A stretch of DNA of 64,000 nt, taken from NCBI RefSeq assembly GCF_009931435.1, contig NZ_CP043414.1. One strand, written 5' to 3'. This DNA is from Escherichia coli. Its GTDB lineage: Bacteria; Pseudomonadota; Gammaproteobacteria; Enterobacterales; Enterobacteriaceae. Position numbers and translations under genes: made by a program. Shown here one piece after another: positions 1-53,287 of this stretch. The stretch's first letter is position 1, and the number at the start of each line of letters is the position of its first letter. Below the pieces are notes generated by a model. The model was given only the letters and a program-made list of their open reading frames with translations, made no database searches and was not told where the DNA came from.

Positions 1-119
1 TTGAGTAACAGCGAAGGATTGGTGGTGGCATCCTGGGGATGATAATGGCGAATGGATTCAATATCGCCGCTGTCTGCCACGACAGTGGTGAACTGTTTGA
101 TGCCGTCTAACTCGTTCAT
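1..119 (-). CDS. talA: transaldolase A, N-terminal part; gene continues beyond window start
   Basis: Reverse complement of 1-119 translates [26 protein letters not shown]..., a transaldolase N-terminus; ATG at 117-119; divergent from maeB. Confidence 0.8.
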
Positions 120-407
120 AGGAAATACTCCTTGAAAAGTAAAGTGTTAGATGAGTGCGTTAATTCACACTTCTGAGAAATTTCGCTAAACGCATCAAAA
201 AAGCATAGCAGACAGGCATGGTATTGCTGGATTAAGCAGGTAACATCAGTGTTATAGGATTATTACCAAAACATTATGTTAATGGTGAGAGTTTGGACTT
301 GCTCAAAGTCTGTAGACTCCGGCAAGGTAATAATGTGCGCCACGTTGTGGGCAGGGGCTGTTGCCCACACACTTTATTTGTGAACGTTACGTGAAAGGAA
401 CAACCAA

Positions 408-2687
408 ATGGATGACCAGTTAAAACAAAGTGCACTTGATTTCCATGAATTTCCAGTTCCAGGGAAAATCCAGGTTTCTCCAACCAAGCCTCTGGCAACG
501 CAGCGCGATCTGGCGCTGGCCTACTCACCAGGCGTTGCCGCACCTTGTCTTGAAATCGAAAAAGACCCGTTAAAAGCCTACAAATATACCGCTCGTGGTA
601 ACCTGGTGGCGGTGATCTCTAACGGTACGGCGGTGCTGGGGTTAGGCAACATTGGCGCGCTGGCAGGCAAACCGGTGATGGAAGGCAAGGGCGTTCTGTT
701 TAAGAAATTCGCCGGGATTGATGTATTTGACATTGAAGTTGATGAACTTGACCCGGACAAATTTATTGAAGTTGTCGCTGCGCTCGAACCGACCTTCGGC
801 GGCATCAACCTCGAAGACATTAAAGCGCCAGAATGTTTCTATATTGAACAGAAACTGCGCGAGCGGATGAATATTCCAGTATTCCACGACGATCAGCACG
901 GCACGGCAATTATCAGCACTGCAGCCATCCTCAACGGATTGCGCGTGGTGGAGAAAAACATCTCCGACGTGCGGATGGTGGTTTCCGGCGCGGGTGCAGC
1001 AGCAATTGCCTGTATGAACCTGCTGGTGGCGCTGGGGCTGCAAAAACATAACATCGTGGTTTGTGATTCAAAAGGCGTTATCTATCAGGGCCGTGAGCCA
1101 AATATGGCGGAAACCAAAGCCGCATATGCGGTGGTAGATGACGGCAAACGTACCCTCGATGATGTAATTGAAGGCGCGGATATTTTCCTGGGCTGTTCCG
1201 GCCCGAAAGTGCTGACCCAGGAAATGGTTAAGAAAATGGCTCGTGCGCCGATGATCCTGGCGCTTGCGAACCCGGAACCAGAAATTCTGCCGCCGCTGGC
1301 GAAAGAAGTGCGTCCGGATGCCATCATCTGTACCGGCCGTTCCGACTACCCGAACCAGGTTAATAACGTGCTTTGCTTCCCATTCATCTTCCGTGGCGCG
1401 TTGGACGTTGGTGCAACTGCCATCAACGAGGAAATGAAACTGGCGGCGGTACGCGCGATTGCAGAACTGGCCCATGCGGAACAGAGCGAAGTCGTTGCTT
1501 CGGCGTATGGCGATCAAGATCTGAGCTTCGGCCCGGAATACATCATTCCAAAACCGTTTGATCCGCGTTTGATCGTTAAGATCGCTCCTGCGGTCGCTAA
1601 AGCGGCGATGGAGTCGGGTGTGGCGACGCGTCCGATTGCTGATTTCGACGTCTACATCGACAAGCTGACTGAGTTCGTTTACAAAACCAACCTGTTTATG
1701 AAGCCGATTTTCTCCCAGGCCCGCAAAGCGCCGAAGCGCGTTGTTTTACCGGAAGGGGAAGAGGCACGCGTTCTGCATGCTACTCAGGAACTGGTGACTC
1801 TGGGACTGGCGAAACCGATCCTTATCGGTCGTCCGAACGTGATCGAAATGCGCATTCAAAAACTGGGCTTGCAGATCAAAGCGGGCGTTGATTTTGAGAT
1901 CGTCAATAACGAATCCGATCCGCGTTTTAAAGAATACTGGACCGAATACTTCCAGATCATGAAGCGCCGTGGTGTAACTCAGGAGCAGGCGCAGCGGGCA
2001 CTGATCAGTAACCCGACAGTGATCGGCGCGATCATGGTTCAGCGTGGCGAAGCCGATGCAATGATTTGCGGTACGGTGGGCGATTATCATGAACACTTCA
2101 GCGTGGTGAAAAATGTCTTTGGTTATCGCGATGGCGTTCACACCGCAGGCGCAATGAACGCGCTGCTATTGCCGAGTGGTAACACTTTTATTGCCGATAC
2201 CTACGTCAATGACGAGCCAGACGCAGAAGAGTTGGCGGAGATCACCTTGATGGCGGCAGAAACTGTTCGTCGTTTTGGTATTGAGCCGCGTGTGGCTCTG
2301 TTGTCACACTCCAACTTTGGTTCTTCTGACTGCCCGTCGTCGAGCAAAATGCGTCAAGCGCTGGAACTGGTCAGAGAGCGTGCGCCAGAACTGATGATTG
2401 ATGGTGAAATGCACGGCGATGCAGCGCTGGTGGAAGCGATTCGCAGCGATCGTATGCCGGACAGCCCTTTGAAAGGTTCCGCCAATATTCTGGTGATGCC
2501 GAACATGGAAGCTGCCCGTATTAGTTACAACTTACTGCGCGTTTCCAGCTCGGAAGGTGTGACTGTCGGTCCGGTGCTGATGGGTGTGGCGAAACCGGTT
2601 CACGTGTTAACACCAATCGCATCCGTACGTCGTATCGTCAACATGGTGGCGCTGGCCGTGGTTGAAGCGCAAACCCAACCGCTGTAA
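408..2687 (+). CDS. maeB: NADP-dependent malic enzyme with C-terminal phosphotransacetylase-like domain
   Basis: 759 aa ORF; malic enzyme N-terminal domain and PTA-like C-terminal domain recognisable in translation. Confidence 0.93.
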
Positions 2688-2705
2688 TTCATTCTTAACT
2701 CTCAC

Positions 2706-2738
2706 GCTTACCCTGAATATTCAGGGTAAGCGGTTTTA
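2706..2738 (+). terminator. intrinsic terminator downstream of maeB
   Basis: Inverted repeat gcttaccctgaa/tat/tcagggtaagc followed by ggtttt, 19 nt after the maeB stop codon. Confidence 0.6.
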
Positions 2739-2739
2739 C

Positions 2740-2978
2740 TGCAATATATTAGTAAAGCTTATTACTAAGTTTTCGAGTAATAAAAAAGCAGCATATAAAC
2801 TATCTCGATATTATTTTATTTATATTCATGCGTCGCATATGAAAGTTTATTCATAACAGTAAATATCTCTCCATTCTTAGTGATCTATCTCACCTTTTAA
2901 ACGCGCTTGCCGAATTTTGTTATTTACTCTGACGAAAAATTGTCACGATACACGAAAGTTTTTCACAGGCGGCGACTC
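2740..2978 (+). promoter_or_regulatory. AT-rich region upstream of eutS, expected position of main eut operon promoter
   Basis: AT-rich 240 bp between the maeB terminator and eutS start; individual -35/-10 or EutR site not resolved. Confidence 0.3.
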
Positions 2979-3314
2979 ATGGATAAAGAACGCATCATTC
3001 AGGAATTTGTGCCCGGCAAACAGGTCACGCTGGCGCATCTCATCGCGCATCCCGGCGAGGAACTGGCGAAGAAAATCGGCGTTCCGGATGCGGGCGCAAT
3101 CGGCATTATGACGCTAACTCCCGGCGAAACGGCGATGATCGCCGGTGATTTAGCGCTGAAAGCTGCCGATGTGCATATCGGTTTCCTCGACCGTTTTAGC
3201 GGCGCACTGGTGATTTATGGTTCGGTGGGCGCAGTAGAAGAAGCGTTATCACAAACCGTCAGCGGTTTAGGACGCTTATTAAATTATACGCTGTGTGAAA
3301 TGACCAAAAGTTAA
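2979..3314 (+). CDS. eutS: ethanolamine utilisation microcompartment shell protein EutS
   Basis: 111 aa from internal ATG at 2979 ([10 protein letters not shown]...); BMC-domain shell protein; first gene of eut cluster. Confidence 0.88.
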
Positions 3315-3326
3315 TACGAGGCATTC

Positions 3327-3806
3327 ATGAAACGAATTGCGTTTGTGGGTGTCGTCGGGGCAGGAAAAACAACGTTATTTAATGCGTTGCAGGGGAATTA
3401 TACCCTCGCCAGAAAAACACAGGCCGTGGAATTTAATGATAAGGGCGATATTGATACGCCGGGTGAATATTTTAGCCATCCCCGCTGGTATCACGCCTTA
3501 ATTACCACGCTACAGGATGTGGACATGCTGATTTATGTCCACGGCGCGAATGACCCGGAAAGCCGATTGCCTGCCGGGTTGCTGGATATTGGTGCCAGCA
3601 AACGGCAAATCGCCGTCATCAGTAAAACGGACATGCCGGATGCTGACGTCGCAGCAACGCGAAAGTTATTGCTTGAAACTGGTTTTGAAGAGCCGATTTT
3701 CGAGCTAAACAGCCACGACCCGCAAAGCGTGCAGCAACTGGTGAATTATCTGGCATCTCTCACCGAACAGGAGGAAGCAGGTGAAAAAACTCATCACAGC
3801 GAATGA
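3327..3806 (+). CDS. eutP: ethanolamine utilisation GTPase/acetate kinase-like protein EutP
   Basis: 159 aa; P-loop GVVGAGKTT near N-terminus; eut operon position. Confidence 0.88.
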   Translation: MKRIAFVGVVGAGKTTLFNALQGNYTLARKTQAVEFNDKGDIDTPGEYFSHPRWYHALITTLQDVDMLIYVHGANDPESRLPAGLLDIGASKRQIAVISKTDMPDADVAATRKLLLETGFEEPIFELNSHDPQSVQQLVNYLASLTEQEEAGEKTHHSE

Positions 3807-4482
3807 TATTCGTGAAGCACATGCGCGCGGCGAACAGGCAATGTCTGTGGTTCTGCGCGCCAGCATTATTACCCCGGAAGCCCGCGAAGTGGCGGACTTG
3901 CTGGGGTTTACCATCACCGAATGCACTGAATCGACGCCAGTAGCGGCATCTGTTCCCGTCAGCGTGCCTGCCGATAAAACTGAAAGCCAGCGTATCCGCG
4001 AAACCATCATCGCCCAGCTGCCGGAAGGCCAGTTTACCGAAAGCCTGGTCGCGCAGCTGATGGAAAAAGTGATGAAGGAAAAACAGTCGCTGGAGCAGGG
4101 GGCAATGCAGCCGAGTTTTAAATCGGTGACCGGCAAAGGCGGCATCAAAGTTATTGATGGCAGCAGCGTGAAGTTTGGTCGTTTCGATGGCGCGGAACCG
4201 CACTGCGTAGGCTTGACTGATCTCGTGACCGGAGACGACGGCAGCAGCATGGCCGCCGGTTTTATGCAGTGGGAGAACGCCTTCTTCCCGTGGACCCTGA
4301 ACTACGACGAAATCGACATGGTACTGGAAGGGGAGCTTCATGTTCGCCATGAAGGCGAAACCATGATCGCCAAAGCGGGCGACGTGATGTTTATCCCGAA
4401 AGGCTCCAGCATCGAATTTGGTACGACATCCAGCGTGAAATTCCTGTATGTCGCCTGGCCGGCTAACTGGCAATCCCTATGA
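3781..4482 (+). CDS. eutQ: ethanolamine utilisation cupin-domain protein EutQ
   Basis: 233 aa ORF overlapping the eutP 3' end by 26 nt; operon position. Confidence 0.85.
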   Translation: MKKLITANDIREAHARGEQAMSVVLRASIITPEAREVADLLGFTITECTESTPVAASVPVSVPADKTESQRIRETIIAQLPEGQFTESLVAQLMEKVMKEKQSLEQGAMQPSFKSVTGKGGIKVIDGSSVKFGRFDGAEPHCVGLTDLVTGDDGSSMAAGFMQWENAFFPWTLNYDEIDMVLEGELHVRHEGETMIAKAGDVMFIPKGSSIEFGTTSSVKFLYVAWPANWQSL

Positions 4483-5282
4483 AAGATTTCATCACCGAAG
4501 CATGGCTAAGAGCGAACCATACGCTCAGCGAAGGCGCAGAGATCCATCTCCCTGCGGACAGTCGCCTGACGCCCTCTGCCCGGGAGTTACTGGAAAGCCG
4601 CCATCTGCGCATCAAGTTTATTGACGAGCAGGGCCGCCTGTTTGTTGACGATGAACAGCAGCAGCTACAGCCCGTTCACGTGCTGACCAGTAGTGATGAA
4701 CATCCGCAGGCGTGCTGCGAACTGTGTCACCAGCCAGTGGCGAAAAAGCCGGACACGCTGACTCACCTGTCGGCGGAAAAAATGGTCGCCAAAAGCGATC
4801 CGCGCCTGGGTTTTCGCGCTGTTCTCGACAGCACCATTGCGCTGGTAGTGTGGCTGCAAATTGAACTGACAGAACCGTGGCAGCCGTGGCTGGCGGATAT
4901 CCGTTCGCGTCTTGGCAACATTATGCGTGCCGATGTGTTGGGCGAACCGCTGGGCTGCCAGGCGATTGTCGGGTTTTCTGACGAAGATCTGCATCGACTT
5001 TCTCACCAGCCACTACGTTATCTCGACCACGATCATCTGGTGCCGGAAGCCAGCCACGGACGTGATGCGGCGTTGCTGAATCTGCTACGCACCAAAGTGC
5101 GGGAAACCGAAACCGTAGCGGCGCAGGTGTTTATCACCCGCAGTTTTGAAGTATTACGCCCGGACATCTTACAGGCGCTGAACCGCCTTTCCAGCACGGT
5201 CTACGTGATGATGATTTTGAGCGTAACGAAGCAGCCGCTAACGGTGAAACAGATCCAACAACGACTGGGAGAGACGCAATGA
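4479..5282 (+). CDS. eutT: ethanolamine utilisation cob(I)alamin adenosyltransferase EutT
   Basis: 267 aa; 4-nt start/stop overlap with eutQ and eutD; operon position. Confidence 0.88.
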
Positions 5283-6295
5283 TTATTGAACGTTGTCGTG
5301 AACTGGCGTTGCGAGCGCCCGCCAGAGTAGTTTTTCCGGATGCGTTAGATCAACGTGTGCTGAAAGCTGCGCAATATTTACATCAACAAGGTCTGGCAAC
5401 GCCCATTCTGGTCGCCAATCCGTTTGAACTTCGTCAGTTTGCGCTCAGCCACGGCGTGGCGATGGACGGGCTACTGGTGATTGATCCTCATAGCAACCTC
5501 GCAATGCGGGAAGAATTTGCTCATCGCTGGCTGGCCCGCGCGGGCGAAAAAACGCCGCCGGATGCGCTGGAAAAACTTACCGATCCGCTGATGTTCGCCG
5601 CCGCAATGGTCAGCGCCGGTAAAGCGGATGTCTGTATCGCGGGCAACCTCTCTTCCACGGCGAATGTGCTGCGTGCCGGATTACGCATTATCGGCTTGCA
5701 GCAAGGCTGTAAAACGCTCTCCTCCATTTTCCTGATGCTGCCACAGTACAGCGGTCCAGCGTTGGGCTTTGCCGATTGCAGCGTAGTGCCACAGCCGACG
5801 GCGGCACAACTGGCGGATATCGCGCTTGCCAGCGCCGAAACCTGGCGAGCCATCACCGGAGAAGAGCCGCGGGTGGCGATGTTGTCGTTCTCCAGTAACG
5901 GCAGCGCCCGTCACCCCTGCGTTGCCAACGTCCAGCAAGCGACAGAAATCGTCCGTGAGCGCGCACCGCAGCTGGTCGTCGATGGCGAGTTGCAGTTTGA
6001 CGCCGCCTTTGTGCCAGAAGTGGCGGCGCAAAAAGCGCCAGCCAGCCCGCTACAGGGCAAAGCCAATGTGATGGTTTTTCCGTCGCTGGAGGCGGGAAAT
6101 ATTGGCTACAAAATCGCACAACGACTTGGCGGATATCGTGCCGTCGGGCCATTGATACAAGGACTTGCCGCGCCGATGCACGATCTTTCTCGTGGTTGTA
6201 GCGTGCAGGAAATTATCGAGCTGGCGCTGGTGGCAGCTGTGCCGCGTCAGACAAAAGTGAACCGCGAAAGCAGTTTACAAACACTGGTTGAATGA
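5279..6295 (+). CDS. eutD: phosphotransacetylase EutD
   Basis: 338 aa; PTA family sequence; operon position. Confidence 0.9.
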
Positions 6296-6333
6296 ACGGT
6301 CCCGTTCTGGACCCCTATAAAGAGGAAAACACA

Positions 6334-6627
6334 ATGGAAGCATTAGGAATGATCGAAACCCGGGGCCTGGTTGCACTGATTGAGGCTTCTGACGCGATGG
6401 TGAAAGCTGCGCGCGTCAAGCTGGTTGGTGTTAAGCAGATTGGCGGCGGCCTGTGTACTGCCATGGTTCGTGGTGATGTTGCAGCCTGTAAAGCCGCAAC
6501 CGATGCCGGTGCCGCAGCGGCACAGCGTATCGGTGAACTGGTATCCGTACATGTTATTCCGCGTCCGCACGGCGATCTGGAAGAGGTCTTCCCGATCGGC
6601 CTGAAAGGCGATAGCAGCAACCTGTAA
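6334..6627 (+). CDS. eutM: microcompartment shell protein EutM (BMC-H)
   Basis: 97 aa from ATG at 6334 ([26 protein letters not shown]...), canonical BMC domain; RBS agagga at 6321-6326. Confidence 0.9.
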
Positions 6628-39299: not shown

Positions 39300-40271
39300 T
39301 TACTGTTGCAATTCTTTCTCAGTGAAGAGATCGGCAAACAATGCGGTGCTTAAATAACGCTCACCCGATGACGGTAGAATAACCACAATATTCTTGTTGG
39401 TAAAGCTTTCATCTTCTTGTAGTTTCAACGCTGCAGCAACAGCTGCTCCAGAAGAGATACCTGCAAGAATACCTTCCTCTTCCATCAGACGACGCGCGGT
39501 AGAAATAGCTTCTTCATTGGTGATGCCAATGACTTTATCGACCAGCTTGAGATCAAGGTTAGCCGGGATAAAACCAGCGCCAATCCCCTGAATTTTATGC
39601 GGGCCAGGTTTAATCTCTTCACCTGCCAGCGCCTGGGCGATAACCGGAGAATCGGTTGGCTCCACGGCGACAGAGATGAGATCAGTCTTGCCTTTGGTGC
39701 CTTTAATGTAGCGGCTGACGCCGGTCAGCGTACCGCCAGTCCCAACACCAGCAATAAATACATCAACCTGACCGTCGGTATCTTCCCAGATCTCCGGACC
39801 GGTGGTTTTTTCGTGAATTTCAGGGTTTGCCGGATTGCTGAATTGTTGCAGCAGTAGGTATTTCTCTGGATTGCTGGCGACAATTTCTTCTGCTTTTTGG
39901 ATTGCGCCTTTCATGCCTTTAGCACCTTCGGTCAGCACCAGGTTTGCACCTAACGCTTTCAGCAGCTTGCGGCGTTCAATACTCATGGTTTCTGGCATGG
40001 TCAGGGTGAGTTTGTAACCGCGAGCGGCAGCCACATAGGCCAGTGCAATCCCGGTATTACCGCTGGTTGGTTCAACCAGTTCAACGCCTGGTTTCAGCAC
40101 GCCGCGCTTTTCGGCATCCCAAATCATATTGGCACCGATACGGCACTTAACGCTGAAGCTGGGGTTACGAGATTCCACCTTCGCCAGAATGCGTCCGTTA
40201 CCGATGCGATTCAGGCGAACCAGCGGTGTGTGACCGATAGTCAGCGAGTTATCTTCAAAAATCTTACTCAT
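39300..40271 (-). CDS. cysK: cysteine synthase A (O-acetylserine sulfhydrylase A)
   Basis: 323 aa; PLP-enzyme sequence. Confidence 0.95.
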
Positions 40272-40455
40272 GGCCTGTCCTTAACTGTATGAAATTGGGA
40301 TACAACAGGTAGCATACCCGCTCAGAGAATATGCGGAAGTAAGGATTTAGCATATCTATATGCAGAAGGGAAATAATGACATGCAAGATGGAATAAGGGG
40401 TGGCATAAGCCACCCCTGTTTCACACAAACGGTTTACAAAATAACCGGTAGATTG

Positions 40456-41217
40456 TTACCGCCACATCGCGTGTTTATCGCGATAGCAATCGACCCACAT
40501 CGCCGTCGCGCCACAAACGGCAACGGGCATAATGAACAGATTAAGCAGCGGGATCATCGTAAACAGGCTGGTTAAAGCACCAAACTGCATATTGGTGATT
40601 TTGCGTGTGCGCAGGGCGGTGCGCATCTCTTTAAACGGCACTTTGTGGTTATCGAAGGGGTAATCGCAATACTGGATGGCTAACATCCAGGCACTAAACA
40701 GGAACCACAGTACCGGCGCGACGGTTTGCCCAATGCCAGGGATGAAGTAAAGAATTAGCAATACAATCGCCCGTGGCAGATACCAGGCAAATTTTTGCCA
40801 TTCGCGTTTCATGATTCGCGGCACATCTTTCATGATACCGAAAATTCCGGTATCTGGCGGTGTAGCGCCAGTCAGTCTTGCTTCCAGTTGTTCAGCCAAT
40901 AAGCCGTTGAACGGAGCAGCAATCCAGTTAGCAATCGTTGAGAAGAAATAGCCAAACACTAACAGCACAGAGATGACAGCCAGGGGCCACAACAGATAGC
41001 TCAGCCATTGTAACCAGTCCGGAACATAACTCATGAGAGTCGGGATCCAGACATCGAGTTGCGTAAAGAGCCACCAGAATGCGCCCCCCATCAACAAAAT
41101 ATTGACCAACAGCGGTAAAATAACAAAACGCCGAATCCCAGGTTGCGAGACGAGCTTCCAGCCTTGCGCAAAATAGTAAAAACCGCTGCGTGGGGCAGAT
41201 GTGAATGATGAAACCAT
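40456..41217 (-). CDS. cysZ: sulfate transporter CysZ
   Basis: 253 aa polytopic membrane protein. Confidence 0.9.
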
Positions 41218-41446
41218 AATCAGGATGAGCTCCTTTTGACCAATCCCAGGAAAATTCTGCGTATTTTACCGGGTAATTGCGCAATGGACAGTTAGGATAT
41301 GTTCGAAAAAACAGCAAAAAGCACGATTTCATCTATCTTTGTGCTGTGAAAGTTAATAGTGCACTTGCACTTGAGGTAATCGGCAAATACTCTTAGTGAG
41401 TAAATGTTTGCCGTGGTGGCAAGGTGTTAGAACAACAGAGAATATA

Positions 41447-42445
41447 ATGATGCAGGATTTGCGTCTGATATTAATCATTGTTGGCGCGATCGCCATAATC
41501 GCTTTACTGGTACATGGTTTCTGGACCAGCCGTAAAGAACGATCTTCTATGTTCCGCGATCGGCCATTAAAACGAATGAAGTCAAAACGTGACGACGATT
41601 CTTATGACGAGGATGTCGAAGATGATGAGGGCGTTGGTGAGGTTCGTGTTCACCGCGTGAATCATGCCCCGGCTAACGCCCAGGAGCATGAGGCTGCTCG
41701 TCCGTCGCCGCAACACCAGTACCAACCGCCTTATGCGTCTGCGCAGCCGCGTCAACCGGTCCAGCAGCCGCCTGAAGCGCAGGTACCGCCGCAACATGCT
41801 CCGCGTCCAACGCAGCCGGTGCAGCAACCCGTGCAGCAGCCTGCCTATCAGCCTCAGCCTGAACAGCCGTTGCAGCAGCCAGTTTCGCCACAGGTCGCGT
41901 CAGCGCCGCAGCCAGTGCATTCAGCACCGCAACCGGCACAACAGGCTTTCCAGCCTGCAGAACCTGTAGCGGCACCACAGCCTGAGCCTGTAGCGGAACC
42001 GGCTCCAGTTATGGATAAACCGAAGCGCAAAGAAGCGGTGATTATCATGAACGTCGCGGCGCATCACGGTAGCGAGTTAAACGGTGAACTGCTTCTTAAC
42101 AGCATTCAACAAGCGGGCTTCATTTTTGGCGATATGAACATTTACCATCGTCATCTTAGCCCGGATGGCAGCGGCCCGGCGTTATTCAGCCTGGCGAATA
42201 TGGTGAAACCGGGAACCTTCGATCCTGAAATGAAGGATTTCACTACTCCGGGTGTCACTATCTTTATGCAGGTACCGTCTTACGGTGACGAGCTGCAGAA
42301 CTTTAAGCTGATGCTGCAATCTGCGCAGCATATTGCCGATGAAGTGGGCGGTGTAGTGCTTGACGATCAGCGCCGTATGATGACTCCGCAGAAATTGCGC
42401 GAGTACCAGGACATCATCCGCGAAGTCAAAGACGCCAACGCCTGA
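41447..42445 (+). CDS. zipA: cell division protein ZipA
   Basis: 332 aa from ATG at 41447 ([26 protein letters not shown]...): N-terminal TM anchor, long P/Q-rich linker, C-terminal FtsZ-binding domain. Confidence 0.9.
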
Positions 42446-42506
42446 TACACTTAAGGCAAATTAACTCCTCTTCGAACCCCCGCTTGTCGGGGGTTTTTAG
42501 CATTGA

Positions 42507-44531
<2,025 letters not shown>

Positions 44532-44532
44532 G

Positions 44533-44751
44533 ATGGAAAAAGAGCAGCTGATTGAAATAGCCAATACGATAATGCCGTTTGGCAAATACAAAGGGCGTCG
44601 CTTAATCGACCTGCCGGAGGAGTATCTTCTGTGGTTTGCCCGCAAAGATGAGTTCCCGGCAGGGAAGCTCGGTGAGCTAATGCAAATCACGCTGCTGATT
44701 AAAACCGAGGGGCTGACGCAACTGGTCCAGCCCCTGAAACGCCCACTTTAA
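44533..44751 (+). CDS. ypeB: small protein YpeB (DUF3820-like)
   Basis: 72 aa from ATG at 44533 immediately after the ligA stop (MEKEQLIEIANTIMPFGKYKGRRL...). Confidence 0.75.
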   Translation: MEKEQLIEIANTIMPFGKYKGRRLIDLPEEYLLWFARKDEFPAGKLGELMQITLLIKTEGLTQLVQPLKRPL

Positions 44752-45746
44752 GCTTTATCGGCGCTGCTTTCCTGCTGCGCCTGTAACTGTTCGGTCTGGC
44801 GTTTGTATCGACGCGCCAGCACCGCACAGACCATCAATTGGATCTGATGGAAAATCATCAGAGGCAGCACCATCATACCGATCACCGATGTGGGGAACAG
44901 AATGTTTGCCATCGGGATGCCATTTGCCAGACTCTTTTTCGAACCACAAAAGACGATAGTAATTTCATCTGCCTTATTGAAGCCCAGTCGGCGTGCCATA
45001 AAGACGTTAACTACAATCACGATAGCCAGAAGAACGCAGCTAACCACCACGATAAATAGCAATGATCCCCAGCCAACTTTATGCCAGATGCCGTTAACGA
45101 CGGCTTCGCTGAACGCAGTATAAACCACCAACAGAATGGACGTCTGGTCAGTTTTCGCAATCCATTTTTTATTTCGTGACACCCAGTTGCCAATCCAAGG
45201 GCGAGAAAGATGTCCCAGCACAAACGGCAGCAGCAGTTGCAGCATTATCTTACCTACCTGCTCAAGGCTGCCCCCTGCACCGTGAACATTCATCACCAGG
45301 CCAACCAGCAACGGTGAAAGGAAAATCCCCAGTAGGCTGGATGCTGACGCAGAACAAACCGCCGCCGCGACGTTACCGCCCGCCATTGACGTGAAGGCGA
45401 TTGCAGACTGCACGGTCGCGGGGAGAATGCACAAGTAGAGAAAACCGGAGTAGAGCATCGGGTCGACATTTACCGGTTTCCACCAGGCAAACAGCACGCC
45501 CAGAATTGGAAACAGCACGAAGGTGCTGCACATTACCCACAAATGCAGTCGCCAGTGACCACCGCCAGCAATAATCGCCTCACGCGACAACTTCGCGCCG
45601 TGCATAAAGAACAGCAGAGCAATAGCTGCGGTAGTCAGATTTTCAAAGAAGGGAACGAAATCGCCCCTGGCCGGAAAGAAAGAGGCCAGCAACACCACCG
45701 TGATCAGGGTTAAGGTGAAAGGATCGAGGATACGAAAAAGTTTCAT
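44748..45746 (-). CDS. yfeH: bile acid:sodium symporter family membrane protein YfeH
   Basis: 332 aa polytopic membrane protein. Confidence 0.88.
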   Translation of the reverse strand: MKLFRILDPFTLTLITVVLLASFFPARGDFVPFFENLTTAAIALLFFMHGAKLSREAIIAGGGHWRLHLWVMCSTFVLFPILGVLFAWWKPVNVDPMLYSGFLYLCILPATVQSAIAFTSMAGGNVAAAVCSASASSLLGIFLSPLLVGLVMNVHGAGGSLEQVGKIMLQLLLPFVLGHLSRPWIGNWVSRNKKWIAKTDQTSILLVVYTAFSEAVVNGIWHKVGWGSLLFIVVVSCVLLAIVIVVNVFMARRLGFNKADEITIVFCGSKKSLANGIPMANILFPTSVIGMMVLPLMIFHQIQLMVCAVLARRYKRQTEQLQAQQESSADKA

Positions 45747-45984
45747 AAAGACTCCAGATGAACGATGCTTTCATTGTGCGTTCTTCTGATTGATAAATAA
45801 AACTGAATTGCTTAACAATTTGTGCGCGATAATGGAGAGTGAGTGGGGGCTCGCTTCGACTGGCGGGCTGAGTTGGGCAAGCAAATCCGAACGAATCAAA
45901 TAAGGGCGGTCAATGAGTGCGCTTGATGACCGCTGTAATATTATTGCTGACGACCGTAGCCGTTTTAGTGTTATCAACGCAGGC

Positions 45985-46752
45985 TTAGAACTGATATTTT
46001 ATTGAATAAATAATGCCATCCTGGAGGAAGGCTTCACCCAGTTTATTATCTGCGTAGCGATATTGAATCCCTGCCGTAAAATGCGGTGTCGCATTCCACC
46101 AAAACGCTACTGCTCCGTTTATACCTTCTTTTCCGCCATTACCTGCTGCATATGTAGCGTCGCGGTCAAATTCGTATTCATTCCAGTTAGTCAGGCTGAA
46201 TTTTTCGCTACCAAGCGTGAAACTGTATCCGGCAACCCAGCCCAAAACATAGCCATTGTCACCGGTATAATAGGTTTGATCGGTGTAACGTTTCGCGAAG
46301 AATGGCTTAAACCAGTAACCATTTCCCGTAAAATTGTATCCAAGCCCGTAAAGGAATGTATCATCATAGAAGTTAACACGTTCAGGTGAACCGTAAGTCC
46401 CGTAAGCGTGAAGATAAAGATTCAGTCCTGTATCACCAAGATAAATGCGGTTGGTACTTTTAAAAGTATAACGTTGTTCACTGCCAGATTTTGAATGTCG
46501 GCCATTATAGAAGTTCTCCCAATCGAAGAACCCGTACATTTCTCCCCAACTAAAGTTAGCACCACCTTCTAATTCCAGATAGCCAAAATCATCTTTATGG
46601 GACTTATTACTGGTTTTCTCTGTCGTGCGGGATGTCCAGTCAAGATAATGCAGACCAATGTCAGCAAAGCCCCCTTTAAACTCGGCATAAGACATTTGCG
46701 GAAAAGCCATGGGAACCAGACCAAGGCTTAATGCAAGAAGCTGTTTTTTCAT
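45985..46752 (-). CDS. yfeN: Tsx-family outer membrane nucleoside channel-like protein YfeN
   Basis: ATG at 46752 (MKKQLLALSLGLVPMAFPQMSYA signal peptide), Tyr/Gly-rich beta-barrel sequence ending ...YQF. Confidence 0.85.
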   Translation of the reverse strand: MKKQLLALSLGLVPMAFPQMSYAEFKGGFADIGLHYLDWTSRTTEKTSNKSHKDDFGYLELEGGANFSWGEMYGFFDWENFYNGRHSKSGSEQRYTFKSTNRIYLGDTGLNLYLHAYGTYGSPERVNFYDDTFLYGLGYNFTGNGYWFKPFFAKRYTDQTYYTGDNGYVLGWVAGYSFTLGSEKFSLTNWNEYEFDRDATYAAGNGGKEGINGAVAFWWNATPHFTAGIQYRYADNKLGEAFLQDGIIYSIKYQF

Positions 46753-47005
46753 AGTATGTTCCACTTAAGTAATAAATTTAATGAATGTGATATGCTTACA
46801 TATTTATGCTGTAATTATTTGGCATGTCTATTTTATTAGATTTATGACAGCTCTAACCAATACATAATTATCACGTAATGATAGGGTGTCGATCTGAATG
46901 TCTTCAGGATTGATATCAAATTGCAATTGATATCCGTGGTAAAAAGTATTGGTAAATGTGATGAATTTCCGGTTATTTAAAGGGGGCTCAAAGTCGAAGG
47001 AGAAG

Positions 47006-48262
47006 ATGGTGAATCTAAAACTACAATTAAAAGTACTTTCATTTCTGCAATTCTTTTTGTGGGGAAGTTGGCTCAATACATTCGGTTCCTATATGTTTAT
47101 CACGCTGCGTTTTAAAGGCGAGGATATTGGTGCAGTCTATAGTACCTTGGGTATTGCAGCATTAATAACATCAACGTTATTTGGTATCGTGGCCGATAAA
47201 TGGATTAGTGCTAAATGGATATATGCCGCTTGTCATTTATTTGGCGCGATAACATTATTTGTCGCTGCATCGGTTACCACGCCTTCGGCAATGTTCATTG
47301 TCATTTTACTTAACTCTCTCGTGTATATGCCAACGCTCGGTTTGAGTAATACAATTTCCTATTACCGCATACAAACTGCGGGGATGGATATTGTGACAGA
47401 ATTTCCACCAATCCGTATTTGGGGCACGATTGGATTTATTGTCGCGATGTGGGCGGTGAGTTTGGCAGGTTTTGAATTAAGTCATATGCAATTGTATATC
47501 GGCGCGGCAGCTTCGTTAGGCTTGAGCCTGTTCACGTTGACATTACCGACTGTACCAGTGGCGAAATCTAACCAGGCGCAAGGAATGATAGACGTGCTCG
47601 GACTGCGTGCATTTGCACTGTTTAAGAACAGCAAAATGGCGATTTTCTTTATCTTTGCCATGCTGCTCGGGGCAGAACTACAAATTACCGGGATGTTTGG
47701 TAATACATTTCTCCACAGTTTTGAGAGTGTTCCAGAGTTTGCCAATAGCGTTGTTGTAACTCATGCTTCTATTTTGTTATCAATTTCTCAGATATCCGAA
47801 GTCTGCTTCATTCTTGCCATTCCCTTTTTCCTGAAAAAATACGGTATCAAAAATGTCATGCTGATGAGCATGGTGGCCTGGACGCTGCGTTTTGGTTTAT
47901 TCGCTTATGGCGATCCTTCATTCGGCGGTACCATTCTGTTAATTCTTTCGATGATTGTTTATGGCTGTGCTTTTGACTTCTTCAATATATCTGGCTCGGT
48001 ATTTGTTGAACAAGAAGTTGATCCATCGATTCGTAACAGCGCTCAGGGCGTTTTCCTGATGATGGCCAATGGTTTTGGTTGTATTCTGGGCGGTTTTATC
48101 AGTGGTAAAGTCGTCGATTATTTAACAACGGATGGCAATCCACAGTGGTCAACCATTTGGCTGGTATTTGCCGGATATTCACTGGTTCTGGCTCTCGCAT
48201 TTATGGTGTTGTTTAAATATAAACACAACAGTAACCCGACAACATCCGGTCATTTCGCCTGA
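47006..48262 (+). CDS. nucleoside:H+ symporter (NHS) family MFS transporter, NupG-like paralog additional to xapB
   Basis: 418 aa from ATG at 47006 with RBS aaggag at 46997-47002; MVNLKLQLKVLSFLQFFLWGSW... and conserved MIVYGCAFDFFNISGSVFVEQEV block shared with NupG/XapB; AT-rich by eye. Confidence 0.8.
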   Translation: MVNLKLQLKVLSFLQFFLWGSWLNTFGSYMFITLRFKGEDIGAVYSTLGIAALITSTLFGIVADKWISAKWIYAACHLFGAITLFVAASVTTPSAMFIVILLNSLVYMPTLGLSNTISYYRIQTAGMDIVTEFPPIRIWGTIGFIVAMWAVSLAGFELSHMQLYIGAAASLGLSLFTLTLPTVPVAKSNQAQGMIDVLGLRAFALFKNSKMAIFFIFAMLLGAELQITGMFGNTFLHSFESVPEFANSVVVTHASILLSISQISEVCFILAIPFFLKKYGIKNVMLMSMVAWTLRFGLFAYGDPSFGGTILLILSMIVYGCAFDFFNISGSVFVEQEVDPSIRNSAQGVFLMMANGFGCILGGFISGKVVDYLTTDGNPQWSTIWLVFAGYSLVLALAFMVLFKYKHNSNPTTSGHFA

Positions 48263-48316
48263 TACGGAATTTATCAAAATTAATAATGTTTTATAGGATT
48301 AGCAAAGGAGGATATT

Positions 48317-49246
48317 ATGGCAAATCAATTGTATAACCAGTGTCGGGTTTATTGTGCACCCTGGCGATTAGATGCTTTGAATTTAAATGATATCATTGAT
48401 CAATGGATTGACGAGGGGCTGTTGCCGCCCCTGATCCATACTTTTCTTCCATATCGTGATGATGCCGGTGCCTCCAGTGAAGAAGAGATTTTTGTTAATG
48501 ATGTCGCGAATATGGACAATAGTGTTGGGGTTATCGGTTATTTCGATGGTGGAACCTATGATTCCGGTTGTGCATGGGAAGTAGGCTATGCATGGGCTTT
48601 AGGGATGCCTGTTCACTTGGTAACGACAGACTTTCTTATATGGGCAGCGGGGAATTCTTCAGAGTTTTACCCTATAAGTAAGCTGATGAATTATGTGGCA
48701 AAAGTGGTTTCGGTGTCAGATTCCGATGCTAGCATCAGCAACTATCGTGAACAAACCAACGATATCATCAAGCGTGCGTTGCAAATTCTTCAACAAAATT
48801 TAATCGCCGACTTCGGCACGACGATTACTCCCGCTGTACCGATTACGCCATTTCCGATTGAGTATGACTATTATCTTGATCCTAACTTTATGTATACCGA
48901 ACCCTCTCGGGGCTTACTGGAGAAAATCAAAGATGCGATCATTAGTGCAGGTAAGACTTTCATCGTTGGCGACAATATGAATGATATTGCGACTGATATT
49001 GATAACTTAAGAAAATCCAGACAGGCCATCTTTTATTCCGATACCTTTGAGCCGAATGTCGACACCGGTATTATGAATGGTATTGCCTATGCATTAGGAC
49101 AGCAATCGATAGTTTATTGTAGCAAGCAACAAAAGTATCAATCTGCGCTCGCGACAGATTATTTGAATTTAATGATTACCTGGTCGTCAACGGTGGCGCA
49201 TTCATTTGCGGAGCTTGAAACATTGATTGGTAACACAGAAAAATAA
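48317..49246 (+). CDS. hypothetical protein with two tandem nucleoside 2-deoxyribosyltransferase (NDT/Rcl)-like domains
   Basis: 309 aa; domain 1 has GYFDGGTYDSGCAWEVGYAWALGMPV (NDT/Rcl-like ExGYAxALGxP core with the Glu), domain 2 has DTGIMNGIAYALGQQ (same core, Asn in place of Glu); RBS aaggagg upstream; AT-rich by eye. Confidence 0.6.
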   Translation: MANQLYNQCRVYCAPWRLDALNLNDIIDQWIDEGLLPPLIHTFLPYRDDAGASSEEEIFVNDVANMDNSVGVIGYFDGGTYDSGCAWEVGYAWALGMPVHLVTTDFLIWAAGNSSEFYPISKLMNYVAKVVSVSDSDASISNYREQTNDIIKRALQILQQNLIADFGTTITPAVPITPFPIEYDYYLDPNFMYTEPSRGLLEKIKDAIISAGKTFIVGDNMNDIATDIDNLRKSRQAIFYSDTFEPNVDTGIMNGIAYALGQQSIVYCSKQQKYQSALATDYLNLMITWSSTVAHSFAELETLIGNTEK

Positions 49247-49258
49247 TAGTTAATTTTA

Positions 49259-49298
49259 CTGATTATCAGGTGAGTGATTGCCTGATAATCAGCTTTTG
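49259..49298 (+). terminator. intrinsic terminator closing the permease/NDT-like gene pair, upstream of xapA
   Basis: ctgattatcagg / 10-nt loop / cctgataatcag perfect 12-bp stem followed by cttttgg. Confidence 0.65.
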
Positions 49299-49474
49299 GT
49301 TAACCTCCAAAGATAATTATACGGCCGTTATATTTCTCTGCTGGGGAACGATATGATCGATTTCATAATCATATTGAATATCACAGAAAAATGTATTGGT
49401 CACTCGCGACTTTTTCTAGTTATAAAAAGATGCGACTCATATCTTACGAATAATGCATATTATAAGGACTTTCC

Positions 49475-50308
49475 ATGACCCAACCTCATTTTTCACAAAA
49501 CCCGTGGTATTGCGCAGATATCATTCGTCGACATAAACCAGATTTTACCCCACGCGTGGTGTTTATTTTGGGATCGGGGCTGGGAGCGTTAGCTGAACAA
49601 ATAGAAGATGCTGTTGCCATTTCTTATAGCGATTTGCCGGGGTTTCCGGTGAGCACCGTACATGGCCATGCAGGAGAGTTGGTCCTCGGAGTGCTCTCTG
49701 GTGTGCCTGTAGCCTGCATGAAAGGTCGCGGTCATTTTTATGAGGGCCGGGGAATGACAGTCATGACTGATGCTATTCGCACGTTCAAGTTGTTGGGCTG
49801 TGAATTGTTGTTCTGCACCAACGCTGCAGGTTCGCTTCGTCCAGAAGTCGGTGCGGGTAGTCTGGTTGCGCTGAAAGATCACATTAATACGATGCCAGGC
49901 ACACCGATGACAGGCCTTAATGATGAGCGTTTTGGCGAACGCTTTTTTTCATTAGCGAATGCTTACGATGCTGATTACCGCGCCGTTTTACAAACCGTCG
50001 CGCAGGAAGAAGGTTTTCCGCTGACAGAAGGGGTTTTTGTTTCTTATCCGGGCCCGAACTTCGAAACGGCGGCAGAAATTCGCATGATGCAGCTGATTGG
50101 TGGCGATGTTGTGGGTATGTCTGTAGTGCCTGAAGTGATTAGCGCACGTCATTGCGAAATGAAAGTCGTTGCCGTGTCCGCAATAACCAATATGGCAGAA
50201 GGCTTAAGTGATGTGAAATTGTCGCATGCCCAAACCCTGGCTGCAGCAGAGTTATCACGGCAAAACTTTATTAATCTGATTTGCGGATTCTTACGCAAAA
50301 TCGCCTGA
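49475..50308 (+). CDS. xapA: purine nucleoside phosphorylase II (xanthosine phosphorylase)
   Basis: 277 aa PNP family sequence (GSGLGALAEQIE..., GHAGELVLG...). Confidence 0.9.
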   Translation: MTQPHFSQNPWYCADIIRRHKPDFTPRVVFILGSGLGALAEQIEDAVAISYSDLPGFPVSTVHGHAGELVLGVLSGVPVACMKGRGHFYEGRGMTVMTDAIRTFKLLGCELLFCTNAAGSLRPEVGAGSLVALKDHINTMPGTPMTGLNDERFGERFFSLANAYDADYRAVLQTVAQEEGFPLTEGVFVSYPGPNFETAAEIRMMQLIGGDVVGMSVVPEVISARHCEMKVVAVSAITNMAEGLSDVKLSHAQTLAAAELSRQNFINLICGFLRKIA

Positions 50309-50365
50309 AAACAATAAAAATGGCCTCGCGGATGGGGCCATCTCACTGCGATAAGGAAATAAAAC

Positions 50366-51622
50366 ATGAATATCGCAACGCGTTTAAAGGTAATGTCTTT
50401 CTTACAATACTTTATCTGGGGGAGTTGGTTAGTTACCCTCGGCTCTTACATGATTAACACCTTACATTTTACCGGGGCTGATGTCGGTATGGCATACAGT
50501 TCTAAAGGTATTGCGGCCATTATTATGCCAGCCGTTATGGGCATTATTGCCGATAAATGGTTACGGGCTGAACGTACCTATATGCTGTGTCACTTAATTT
50601 GTGCCGGGGTGCTTTTTTATGCCGCCTCTGTAACTGAACCGAATATGATGTTCTGGGTGATGTTGCTTAACGCGATGGCTTTCATGCCCACGATTGCGTT
50701 ATCCAACAGTGTTTCCTATTCGTGTTTGGCGCAGGCCGGATTAGATCCGGTCACCAGTTTTCCGCCAATCCGTGTTTATGGTACCGTGGGATTTATTGTC
50801 GCAATGTGGCTGGTGAGTTTATTGCATCTGGAGTTAAGCAGTGTGCAATTGTATATCGCCTCCGGAGCATCTCTAGTGCTAGCGGTCTATGCGTTAACGT
50901 TACCGAAAATTCCAGTGGCGGAACATAAGGCCAGTACGACGCTTTCCAGTAAATTAGGTCTGGATGCGTTTGTGTTATTTAAAAATCCACGTATGGCGAT
51001 TTTCTTTTTATTTGCCATGTTATTAGGGGCGGTCCTGCAAATTACTAACGTTTTTGGTAATCCTTTTCTGCATGATTTTGCCCGCAACCCTGAGTTTGCT
51101 GATAGCTTCGTGGTGAAATATCCTTCCATTCTGCTCTCGGTATCACAAATGGCGGAAGTCGGCTTCATTCTGACTATTCCTTTCTTTCTGAAGCGTTTTG
51201 GCATCAAAACCGTCATGTTGATGAGTATGGTAGCGTGGACATTACGTTTTGGATTCTTTGCTTTTGGAGATCCGTCACCAGGTGGCTTTGTATTATTGCT
51301 GCTGTCGATGATTGTGTATGGCTGCGCGTTCGACTTTTTCAATATTTCCGGTTCAGTGTTTGTCGAGCAAGAAGTGGACTCCAGGATTCGCGCCAGCGCC
51401 CAGGGATTATTTATGACCATGGTCAATGGCGTTGGGGCGTGGGTTGGTTCTCTTCTGAGTGGCATGGCGGTTGACTATTTCACGGTTGATGGTGTTAAAG
51501 ACTGGCAAACCATCTGGCTGGTATTTGCTGCGTATGCACTGGCCTTGGCGGTGATTTTTGCCCTGTTCTTCCGTTATAAACATGAACCTGAAAAAATGGC
51601 ACAGAAATCATTGGCTCACTGA
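50366..51622 (+). CDS. xapB: xanthosine permease (NHS family MFS)
   Basis: 418 aa MNIATRLKVMSFLQYFIWGSWLVTLGSYMINTLHFTGA...; follows xapA. Confidence 0.9.
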   Translation: MNIATRLKVMSFLQYFIWGSWLVTLGSYMINTLHFTGADVGMAYSSKGIAAIIMPAVMGIIADKWLRAERTYMLCHLICAGVLFYAASVTEPNMMFWVMLLNAMAFMPTIALSNSVSYSCLAQAGLDPVTSFPPIRVYGTVGFIVAMWLVSLLHLELSSVQLYIASGASLVLAVYALTLPKIPVAEHKASTTLSSKLGLDAFVLFKNPRMAIFFLFAMLLGAVLQITNVFGNPFLHDFARNPEFADSFVVKYPSILLSVSQMAEVGFILTIPFFLKRFGIKTVMLMSMVAWTLRFGFFAFGDPSPGGFVLLLLSMIVYGCAFDFFNISGSVFVEQEVDSRIRASAQGLFMTMVNGVGAWVGSLLSGMAVDYFTVDGVKDWQTIWLVFAAYALALAVIFALFFRYKHEPEKMAQKSLAH

Positions 51623-51696
51623 TGTAAACAGGGTTTTCCTTGATTGCAATGTGCTAAGTTTGCAGCCTTACCCATACCGTATGGAGCGCAATAATT

Positions 51697-52581
51697 ATGG
51701 AAAGTACACATCGTATTGATCTCAAGTTATTGCGCTATTTTCTTGCGGTCGCAGAAGAACTTCACTTTGGGCGGGCCGCTGCGCGGCTGAATATGTCGCA
51801 ACCGCCATTAAGTATTCATATCAAAGATCTGGAACAACAGTTGGGCACTTTGCTGTTCGTTCGGCATTCGCGCAGTGTGGCGCTCACTCATGCAGGAAAA
51901 ATTTTATTGGAAGAGTCACGTCGATTGCTGGCTAACGCCAGCCAGGCGCTGGCTCGAGTAGAACAGATTGGTCGTGGTGAAGCAGGGCGTATTGAGCTGG
52001 GCGTGGTGGGAACCGCGATGTGGGGGCGAATGCGTCCGGCAATGCGGCGGTTTTTGAAAGAGTGCCCTAATGTTCATGTCTCATTTCGTGAAAAATCCCC
52101 AGGGATGCAAATGGCGTTGCTTGAGCGGCGGGAACTGGACGCTGGTATCTGGCGGATGGCGATTGAACCAACAGTAGGATTTACCAGCCTGCGATTACAC
52201 GAATCATCGTTTCTGGTAGCAATACCGGAAGATCATTATCTGGCTTGCGAAAACGCTATCCCGTTAATGGCATTACGCAATGAATACTTTGTGACGCTGC
52301 CATCGGTCCATTCCGACTGGGCGTTTTTACAGCGTGTCTGTCAGCAGGCGGGGTTTTCACCGATGATCGTCCGCGAGGCCGTAGAGCCGCAAACCGTACT
52401 GGCGATGATCAGTATGGGGCTGGGTGTAACATTAATGGCAGATAGCTATGCCCAAATGAGCTGGCCGGGGGTGGTATTTCGTCCACTCGAGGAACGTATT
52501 CCAGCAGACTTGTATATTGTTTATGAACAGCAACAGGCAACACCAGCGCTGGAGAGATTAGTTAATGCTTTGATAGCATGA
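51697..52581 (+). CDS. xapR: LysR-family transcriptional activator of xapAB
   Basis: 294 aa; LysR HTH LKLLRYFLAVAEELHFGRAAARLNMSQPPLS. Confidence 0.88.
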   Translation: MESTHRIDLKLLRYFLAVAEELHFGRAAARLNMSQPPLSIHIKDLEQQLGTLLFVRHSRSVALTHAGKILLEESRRLLANASQALARVEQIGRGEAGRIELGVVGTAMWGRMRPAMRRFLKECPNVHVSFREKSPGMQMALLERRELDAGIWRMAIEPTVGFTSLRLHESSFLVAIPEDHYLACENAIPLMALRNEYFVTLPSVHSDWAFLQRVCQQAGFSPMIVREAVEPQTVLAMISMGLGVTLMADSYAQMSWPGVVFRPLEERIPADLYIVYEQQQATPALERLVNALIA

Positions 52582-52601
52582 AAGAAAATATCGCAGATAG
52601 C

Positions 52602-52628
52602 AAAAAAGCGCCTTTAGGGCGCTTTTTT
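52602..52628. terminator. bidirectional intrinsic terminator between xapR (+) and lysV (-)
   Basis: aaaaaagcgcc-ttta-gggcgctttttt hairpin with A- and T-tracts. Confidence 0.65.
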
Positions 52629-52631
52629 ACA

Positions 52632-52707
52632 TTGGTGGGTCGTGCAGGATTCGAACCTGCGACCAATTGATTAAAAGTCAACTGCTCTACCAACTGAGCT
52701 AACGACC
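52632..52707 (-). tRNA. lysV: tRNA-Lys (anticodon UUU)
   Basis: Reverse complement gives 76-nt tRNA GGGTCGTTAGCTCAGTTGGTAGAGCAGTTGACTTTTAATCAATTGGTCGCAGGTTCGAATCCTGCACGACCCACCA. Confidence 0.95.
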
Positions 52708-52711
52708 CGAA

Positions 52712-52787
52712 GTGGTGGGTGATGACGGGATCGAACCGCCGACCCCCTCCTTGTAAGGGAGGTGCTCTCCCAGCTGAGCTAATCACC
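52712..52787 (-). tRNA. valY: tRNA-Val (anticodon UAC)
   Basis: Reverse complement gives GGGTGATTAGCTCAGCTGGGAGAGCACCTCCCTTACAAGGAGGGGGTCGGCGGTTCGATCCCGTCATCACCCACCA. Confidence 0.95.
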
Positions 52788-52833
52788 CACTTCGGTACTT
52801 CACATTGTTACAAGAAATCTAGCTGGCGAGAAA

Positions 52834-52909
52834 GTGGTGGGTGATGACGGGATCGAACCGCCGACCCCCTCCTTGTAAGGGAGGTGCTCTCCCAGCTGAG
52901 CTAATCACC
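52834..52909 (-). tRNA. valX: tRNA-Val (anticodon UAC)
   Basis: Identical 76-nt tRNA-Val copy on the minus strand. Confidence 0.95.
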
Positions 52910-52952
52910 CACTTCTCAATTTCTTGCTACACGGCGGAGACTACATAAGTAG

Positions 52953-53028
52953 TTGGTGGGTGATGACGGGATCGAACCGCCGACCCCCTCCTTGTAAGGG
53001 AGGTGCTCTCCCAGCTGAGCTAATCACC
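52953..53028 (-). tRNA. valU: tRNA-Val (anticodon UAC)
   Basis: Identical 76-nt tRNA-Val copy on the minus strand; first gene of the operon. Confidence 0.95.
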
Positions 53029-53287
53029 CCCGCTGTGTGGAGTCGCATTATAGGGAGAGTTCAAAATGAGTCAACGCATTTTCTAAAGAAATTGTTCGTT
53101 CGTCGTAAATTTAAGCAAGATGATCGCAAAACAGACCGTGTTGCGCAATTTGTCAACGAAAACAATAATGCGTAAGGTTGCAACCCGAACTACATTGAGG
53201 AATCAGGCGGGAGTGATAGAATATCGCCCACTCAATTTTTCCAGGATTTGCCGGTTGTCGGCATCTTTCTAAACGTAAGGCCATTTC

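Follow-up and report, generated by a model that had tools for sequence, protein, structure and literature searches.

The Escherichia coli DNA analysed here, a stretch of 64,000 nucleotides from contig NZ_CP043414.1 (the window), carries yfeH next to a gene of the Tsx family, and yfeR, the gene for a LysR-type regulator that lies beside yfeH in nearly all complete E. coli genomes, is missing from this place. Judging from the sequence, the lineage really appears to lack yfeR. The identity profile of the region and the presence of extra genes show this absence to be one feature of a 6.8-kb alternative haplotype that extends from yfeH to a tRNA cluster. The absence probably goes back to an early loss of the gene from this haplotype, which would be moving by recombination between conserved flanks. 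The genes of the region and the right end of the divergent block are listed below.

41396-42445, zipA
42516-44531, ligA
between ligA and yfeH, ypeB
44748-45746, minus strand, yfeH, SBF-like transporter (ORF; Pfam PF13593, E 2.5e-113; RefSeq annotation of strain R32_14_1F, 99.8% identical)
45985-46752, minus strand, Tsx/OmpK-family outer-membrane channel gene, 255 aa (Pfam PF03502, E 1.4e-43)
47009-48262, plus strand, extra NupG/XapB-family nucleoside permease (TIGR00889, 633.8 bits; R32_14_1F annotation)
48317-49246, plus strand, nucleoside 2-deoxyribosyltransferase-like gene, 309 aa (Pfam PF05014, E 1.7e-16)
49475-50308, plus strand, divergent xapA (77.1% identical to the K-12-type gene)
50366-51622, plus strand, divergent xapB (78.4% identical to the K-12-type gene)
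51697-52581, plus strand, xapR-like LysR gene (72.6% identical to the K-12-type gene), the single LysR-family gene found in the window
52590-53029, minus strand, right end of the divergent block, where identity returns just ahead of tRNA-Lys
52633-52708, tRNA-Lys
52633-53029, tRNA-Lys and three tRNA-Val genes, then gltX

Between the yfeH start codon (on the complement), whose last position is 45746, and the first position of the Tsx-family stop codon, 45985, lies a noncoding gap of 238 bp (45747-45984). An earlier note on this DNA had described exactly this interval as free of a LysR gene, and its coordinates are exact; we detected no YfeR-like sequence in the gap. The longest ORF there encodes 68 aa and starts with TTG (45771-45977, minus strand; no Pfam match), while a 43-aa ORF (45643-45774, minus strand) overlaps the yfeH start out of frame. 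A LysR-type reading frame, ~300 aa long and with the helix-turn-helix domain (PF00126) at its N-terminus, is not present in 45747-45984; the YfeR protein of E. coli locus L002, used as a control, matches this domain with E 7.7e-24. When the same protein (308 aa) served as the query, TBLASTN against the gap returned noise (best E 0.3 across 14 aa), and blastn-short of the gap against yfeR gave nothing beyond 8-11-mers. A yfeR pseudogene remnant in the gap was rejected, since the protein and nucleotide similarity is limited to such 8-11-mers.

The same note had given the order yfeH-yfeR-yfeN for K-12 and Salmonella, with some doubt. This order is correct: yfeH(-) yfeR(+) yfeN(-) xapA xapB xapR is annotated in strain 2017-02-2CC and in K-12 MG1655 (b2410 to b2405), and one Salmonella enterica genome has yfeH-yfeR-yfeN with a YfeR 79.5% identical to that of E. 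coli. The reference thus has yfeR in between, rather than yfeH adjoining yfeN. Among 5426 complete E. coli genomes, 5409 (99.7%) carry yfeR, beside yfeH.

With YfeR as the query, a six-frame phmmer search of the whole 64-kb window identified a single relative of the LysR family; this is the XapR-like gene (51697-52581; 26% identity, E 1.6e-19), by its sequence a paralogue. The window-wide TBLASTN search with YfeR, which had no match, was discarded as a negative because it missed this paralogue, found by BLASTP and phmmer at E 1e-19 to 1e-21, and the six-frame phmmer search was relied on. The 5426 complete genomes were searched by BLASTN (word size 11, sensitive down to ~65-70% nucleotide identity) with a chimeric query composed of the deoxyribosyltransferase-like gene and yfeR. 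It matched 5424 genomes, 5409 through yfeR and 15 through the deoxyribosyltransferase-like gene. Each of these 15 chromosomes, including that of R32_14_1F, has one matching place, namely that gene, and hence yfeR-like DNA is absent chromosome-wide from all 15, down to ~65-70% identity. In particular, no yfeR-like DNA was found at another site on the whole chromosome of R32_14_1F, a strain near-identical to that of the window, at the DNA level.

The window is 99.8% identical to R32_14_1F over 41000-53000 and 100% over 45700-49400. Compared with yfeR-bearing E. coli, the identity is ~99% from 41000 up to ~45779-45809, then 72-78% across the Tsx gene and xapA, xapB and xapR (aligned over 45987-52552) until 52589, and again 99.8% from 52590. 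The same is seen gene by gene: ligA (99.3%), yfeH (99.6%) and gltX (98.2%) are nearly identical to those of yfeR-bearing E. coli at the nucleotide level, whereas the Tsx gene (76.6%; 83.9% at the amino acid level), xapA (77.1%), xapB (78.4%) and xapR (72.6%) are strongly diverged from the K-12-type genes. The GC content is 37-44% across 46000-49500 and 51-57% in the flanks. In place of ~990 bp comprising yfeR and its spacers there are ~150-177 bp of unrelated DNA. The sharp switches from ~99% to below 80% identity at both ends, the conserved flanks and the occurrence of the same haplotype in other lineages and species are the marks of recombinational replacement with a divergent haplotype. The suggestion in the earlier note of a lineage-specific deletion holds insofar as yfeR is absent; but the DNA has been replaced, the Tsx allele is a different one, the whole interval 45780-52589 is divergent, and the loss is probably old.

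The K-12-type locus resembles that of the window in its position between ligA/ypeB/yfeH and the tRNA-Lys/Val cluster with gltX, with flanks 98-99.6% identical, and in having a Tsx-family gene, xapA, xapB and a XapR-like LysR gene in matching order and orientation. It differs in that it has yfeR and lacks counterparts of the permease and the deoxyribosyltransferase-like gene, while the window has a Tsx protein of 84% identity and xap genes of 72-78% nucleotide identity. In addition, K-12-type E. coli and Salmonella have a 52-aa DUF1427 ORF between xapB and xapR, which is missing in the window.

A six-way alignment of the region upstream of yfeH divides the gap into the following parts.

45747-45779, yfeH-proximal part, near-identical in all Escherichia, yfeR-bearing E. 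coli included (alignments)
45780-45834, diverged remainder of the yfeH-yfeR spacer, ~70% identity, in a version common to the window, a second yfeR-less E. coli group (locus L003) and E. albertii
45797-45811, decayed dyad counterpart ATAAAACTGAATTGC (alignment; intact form ATAAAATTGATTTAT)
45835-45984, filler of ~150 bp without yfeR similarity (blastn, alignments)
45906-45933, minus strand, 7-bp GC-rich hairpin (GCGGUCA...UGACCGC) followed by the U-rich CCUUAUUUGAUU (centroid structure), ~50 nt past the Tsx stop codon

In the blastn-short comparison, the match to yfeR-bearing E. coli spans 45700-45767 (97%). At ~45834 the homology stops, both with yfeR-bearing genomes and with E. albertii; in the former, the yfeR ATG is located at the corresponding position. 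Upstream of yfeH, ~85 bp in all are thus retained as a decayed yfeH-yfeR spacer. The intact spacer contains a 26-bp core with the dyad ATAAAATTGATTTAT, which is identical in K-12-type E. coli, in a cryptic-clade strain filed as E. coli (locus L004) and in Salmonella. LysR regulators bind motifs of the T-N11-A kind. As a T-N11-A motif the dyad resembles a LysR box; it overlaps the -35 element of the predicted K-12 yfeH promoter, TTCTCA-17-TAGAAC (PMC3946193). It can be regarded as a putative YfeR operator, which would have decayed in the yfeR-less genomes. The corresponding yfeH promoter hexamers of the window (45750-45815, minus strand) are TTATCA-17-TGAAAG. The -10 variant is common to the window and E. 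albertii, while L003 has the K-12 version, which points to mosaicism even inside 60 bp.

The filler is single-copy, occurring in 16 of the 5426 complete E. coli genomes at one place each. The two yfeR-less groups of E. coli differ in it by indels and have 75-81% identity, and E. albertii does not have it; by its sequence it behaves as unconstrained spacer would. No repeated element, IS end or target-site duplication was found at the junction, in view of the single-copy filler and the lack of an Rfam match. Several candidates were considered for the gap and rejected: a known RNA (no Rfam match at E <= 1), an unusually structured RNA (fold z-score -0.66, no better than shuffled sequence) and, for the filler, a repeated or mobile element, as it is single-copy. 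IS1 is seen only in some derived copies of the haplotype and not in the window. Consensus scans of the gap called 0 terminators and 4 promoter-like sites against 4.2 expected, i.e., no enrichment. Given that the terminator scan made no call, the hairpin at 45906-45933, taken from the folding model, is a weak candidate for the terminator of the Tsx-family gene.

The Tsx-family gene, called yfeN in the earlier note, scores 434.8 bits against the NCBIfam YfeN equivalog model (PRK11528/NF008574; cut-off 282; residues 1-254 of 254 covered). At the nucleotide level, however, it is 76.6% identical to K-12 yfeN, compared to 99.3-99.6% for ligA and yfeH, and it did not qualify as an orthologue; by its sequence it is a divergent yfeN allele of the Tsx family. 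Along the gene, the 3' ~520 bp are 68-80% identical to K-12-type yfeN (sliding identity), and the 5' ~200 bp, together with the DNA upstream of the gene, share 93-98% identity with locus L004 of the cryptic clade. The proteins nearest to the divergent 3' part are Salmonella YfeN (89%) and K-12-like YfeN (84-85%), all of them in yfeR-bearing contexts, and no donor was found for this part or for the filler. A total of 933 public assembly blocks list the Tsx protein in exactly the form of the window; yfeH adjoins this exact allele in all 25 contigs taken from the 23 longest of these blocks. For annotation this means that the Tsx gene beside yfeH should not be taken as the orthologue of K-12 yfeN, and that xapABR is a divergent allele as well.

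The haplotype is rare. The filler search identified the junction in 16 of the 5426 complete E. coli genomes. Seven of them (R32_14_1F, 2020CK-00188, AR_0013, IAI39, CE10, N32 and OZ546943) have the exact arrangement of the window; eight (the L003 group, represented by Z1323HEC0423) have the junction as in the window but have lost 647 bp from within the Tsx gene; and one (VE-T9) has an IS1-associated deletion removing most of the cluster. IAI39 and CE10 (both O7:K1), AR_0013, N32, 2020CK-00188 and R32_14_1F share the gene order and the 238-bp gap with the window at 98.9-100% identity, and the window is another copy of an arrangement that is already public and annotated, for example in IAI39. 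In VE-T9 (L021, IS1 at 5280-5977), the Tsx remnant, the permease, the deoxyribosyltransferase-like gene, xapA and part of xapB have been lost. In the L003 locus (1-6360, compared with window 39700-46049), ligA and yfeH are 96.5-96.8% identical both to the window and to K-12-type genes, and gltX ~99%; this low identity of ligA and yfeH indicates that the divergent tract of the Z1323HEC0423 group reaches leftward past yfeH.

Outside E. coli, the E. albertii loci (L015-L017) have yfeH, ~620 bp, the permease, the deoxyribosyltransferase-like gene and xapA'B'R', with neither yfeR nor a Tsx gene. Like the L003 group, they lack yfeR and have the window-type spacer upstream of yfeH; in E. albertii it continues up to 45834, so that the left side of the junction is present. 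The block composed of the permease, the deoxyribosyltransferase-like gene and xapA'B'R' is 86-88% identical to that of the window in E. albertii and 95-97% in L003. Unlike the window, E. albertii is devoid of a Tsx gene and its filler of ~365 bp is a different one, in L003 the Tsx gene is internally shortened by 647 bp, and some copies in these groups contain IS1; in some E. albertii genomes IS1 disrupts the extra permease (L015/L016, 8888-9585).

The cryptic-clade strain (L004) has flanks of ~90-91% identity, and a yfeR of 92.9% nucleotide and 98% amino acid identity. It combines yfeR and a K-12-like yfeN 3' part with the window-type permease, deoxyribosyltransferase-like gene and xap genes. 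Its yfeN is chimeric (L004 7670-8450, equal to window 45987-46760), the 3' 520 bp being 95-100% identical to the K-12 type and the 5' 200 bp 93-98% identical to the window allele; the switch lies at window positions 46505-46560, where all alleles are 87-95% alike, and the rest of the cluster is window-like. This strain may represent either the ancestral arrangement or a recombinant, and the near-identity of the yfeN 3' part (95-100%, against 90-91% in the flanks) favours the latter.

These observations suggest the following history. The gap is the left junction of a yfeR-less haplotype spanning yfeH to the tRNA-Lys/Val cluster. From the site of the yfeR start codon onward, the yfeR frame and its 3' spacer would have gone, while the yfeH-yfeR spacer would persist as a diverged ~85-bp remnant in which the putative operator over the yfeH -35 element has decayed. 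The ~150 bp of apparently unconstrained filler, perhaps supplying a terminator, would join this remnant to the divergent Tsx-family allele. As Salmonella and most Escherichia carry yfeR with the same spacer, yfeR is presumably ancestral, and it would have been lost once on this haplotype; one old loss is the most economical explanation for the shared conserved spacer and its decayed copy ending at the yfeR start. Since the left junction is also found in E. albertii, the loss would be old and linked to the haplotype rather than recent in the window strain. The haplotype would have persisted, or moved, among E. albertii, a divergent group of E. coli and the group around IAI39 and CE10, to which the window belongs, by means of homologous recombination in the conserved flanks. 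The sequences establish that yfeR is missing, where the breakpoints lie, how the haplotype is distributed and how identity switches along it; we infer a loss rather than a gain, as well as a single origin, and consider this history probable.

Other explanations have less to recommend them. A recent simple deletion of yfeR in a K-12-like locus, specific to a strain or clone, would agree with the shortness of the gap and with a yfeH that is 99.6% identical to the reference although yfeR is missing. It would leave unexplained that identity to the right of the junction drops to 72-78% for 6.8 kb containing two extra genes, that ~150-177 bp of the gap match nothing in yfeR or its spacers, and that the junction is common to two E. 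coli groups 4-5% apart here, with its left side in E. albertii; moreover, the spacer remnant is ~30% off the reference, far beyond what a recent event would leave, and such a deletion is very improbable. A mis-assembly, or a relocation of yfeR within the genome, has nothing but the absence itself in its favour and is hardly credible, given that the arrangement is identical in seven complete genomes and in 25 of 25 contigs (from the 933 blocks) and that the 15 haplotype chromosomes have no second yfeR-like place at the DNA level (BLASTN, word size 11). Both the recent strain-specific deletion and the artefact are effectively excluded.

The opposite direction of change, with the yfeR-less state being original to Escherichia and yfeR, yfeN and K-12-type xapABR imported from another enterobacterium, seems unlikely to us. 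Such an import of the K-12-type block with yfeR could be assumed on the grounds that E. albertii, an early-branching Escherichia, has no yfeR at the locus and that identity to Salmonella is slightly higher for the window-type (B-type) xapR (78.5%, against 73.5% for the K-12 type) and xapA (78.0%, against 76.7%); also, the B-type genes are 85-88% identical to those of E. albertii and the flanks 88-92%, which is about equal divergence. On the other hand, Salmonella has the yfeH-yfeR-yfeN order and a 26-bp spacer core identical to that of E. coli, the yfeR-less genomes retain a decayed spacer ending at the would-be yfeR ATG, as a loss leaves it, and the L004 yfeR (92.9%) is near the divergence of its own flanks (90-91%). 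An old loss on an alternative haplotype accounts better for the spacer. The locus is a case of ordinary genome mosaicism, not a new kind of element, and will not surprise specialists in E. coli genome evolution. A more far-reaching idea is that the haplotype is an ancient trans-species Escherichia polymorphism kept by selection, which swaps the YfeR circuit for an expanded nucleoside-scavenging module; we regard it as quite doubtful. If it were true, the swapped circuit would be that from YbfA to YfeR to fnr, bearing on biofilm formation and low-osmolarity fitness, and carriers such as IAI39 and CE10, extra-intestinal strains of type O7:K1, would be naturally without yfeR, with changes in the regulation of yfeH, fnr and biofilm formation.

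YfeR has been described in Salmonella as a regulator with osmoregulated expression and a role in growth at low osmolarity (Banos et al. 2011, as cited in PMC11227560), and for K-12, repression of fnr by YfeR, acting downstream of YbfA, has been reported during the formation of anaerobic biofilms (PMC11227560, 2024). Given the absence of yfeR from the window lineage, these K-12 functions would not be performed there by any YfeR. Strains with the haplotype appear from their sequences to lack the regulator and to have an altered yfeH promoter region, and effects on the regulation of yfeH or fnr may follow. We found no experiment or paper on naturally yfeR-less strains in the literature; the natural lineages without YfeR, IAI39 and CE10 among them, offer ready tests of how general the YfeR-fnr biofilm circuit (PMC11227560) is. 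The practical value of the locus is modest, yet it provides a clean case of a small interval that occurs, across the species of Escherichia, in mosaic haplotypes of deep divergence.

None of the complete E. coli genomes has both yfeR and the pair formed by the permease and the deoxyribosyltransferase-like gene (15 genomes against 5409), but the pair and yfeR are found together in the cryptic-clade L004. An incompatibility between yfeR and the deoxyribosyltransferase-like gene was rejected on this account, and the mutual exclusivity in E. coli reflects haplotype linkage. The xapA, xapB and xapR genes of the window are about as distant from the K-12-type genes as those of Salmonella are. In the 309-aa deoxyribosyltransferase-like protein, the Pfam match is confined to residues 41-106, and similarity to deoxyribosyltransferases in the PDB is weak (7m5h, E 6.5e-4). 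A BLASTP comparison of its halves was not significant (E 0.12); the halves align in register at D-x-G-x3-E-x-G-x-A-x-A-x-G, with Asn for Glu in the second one, and the protein may, to judge from this motif, have a tandem fold with a degenerate second copy.
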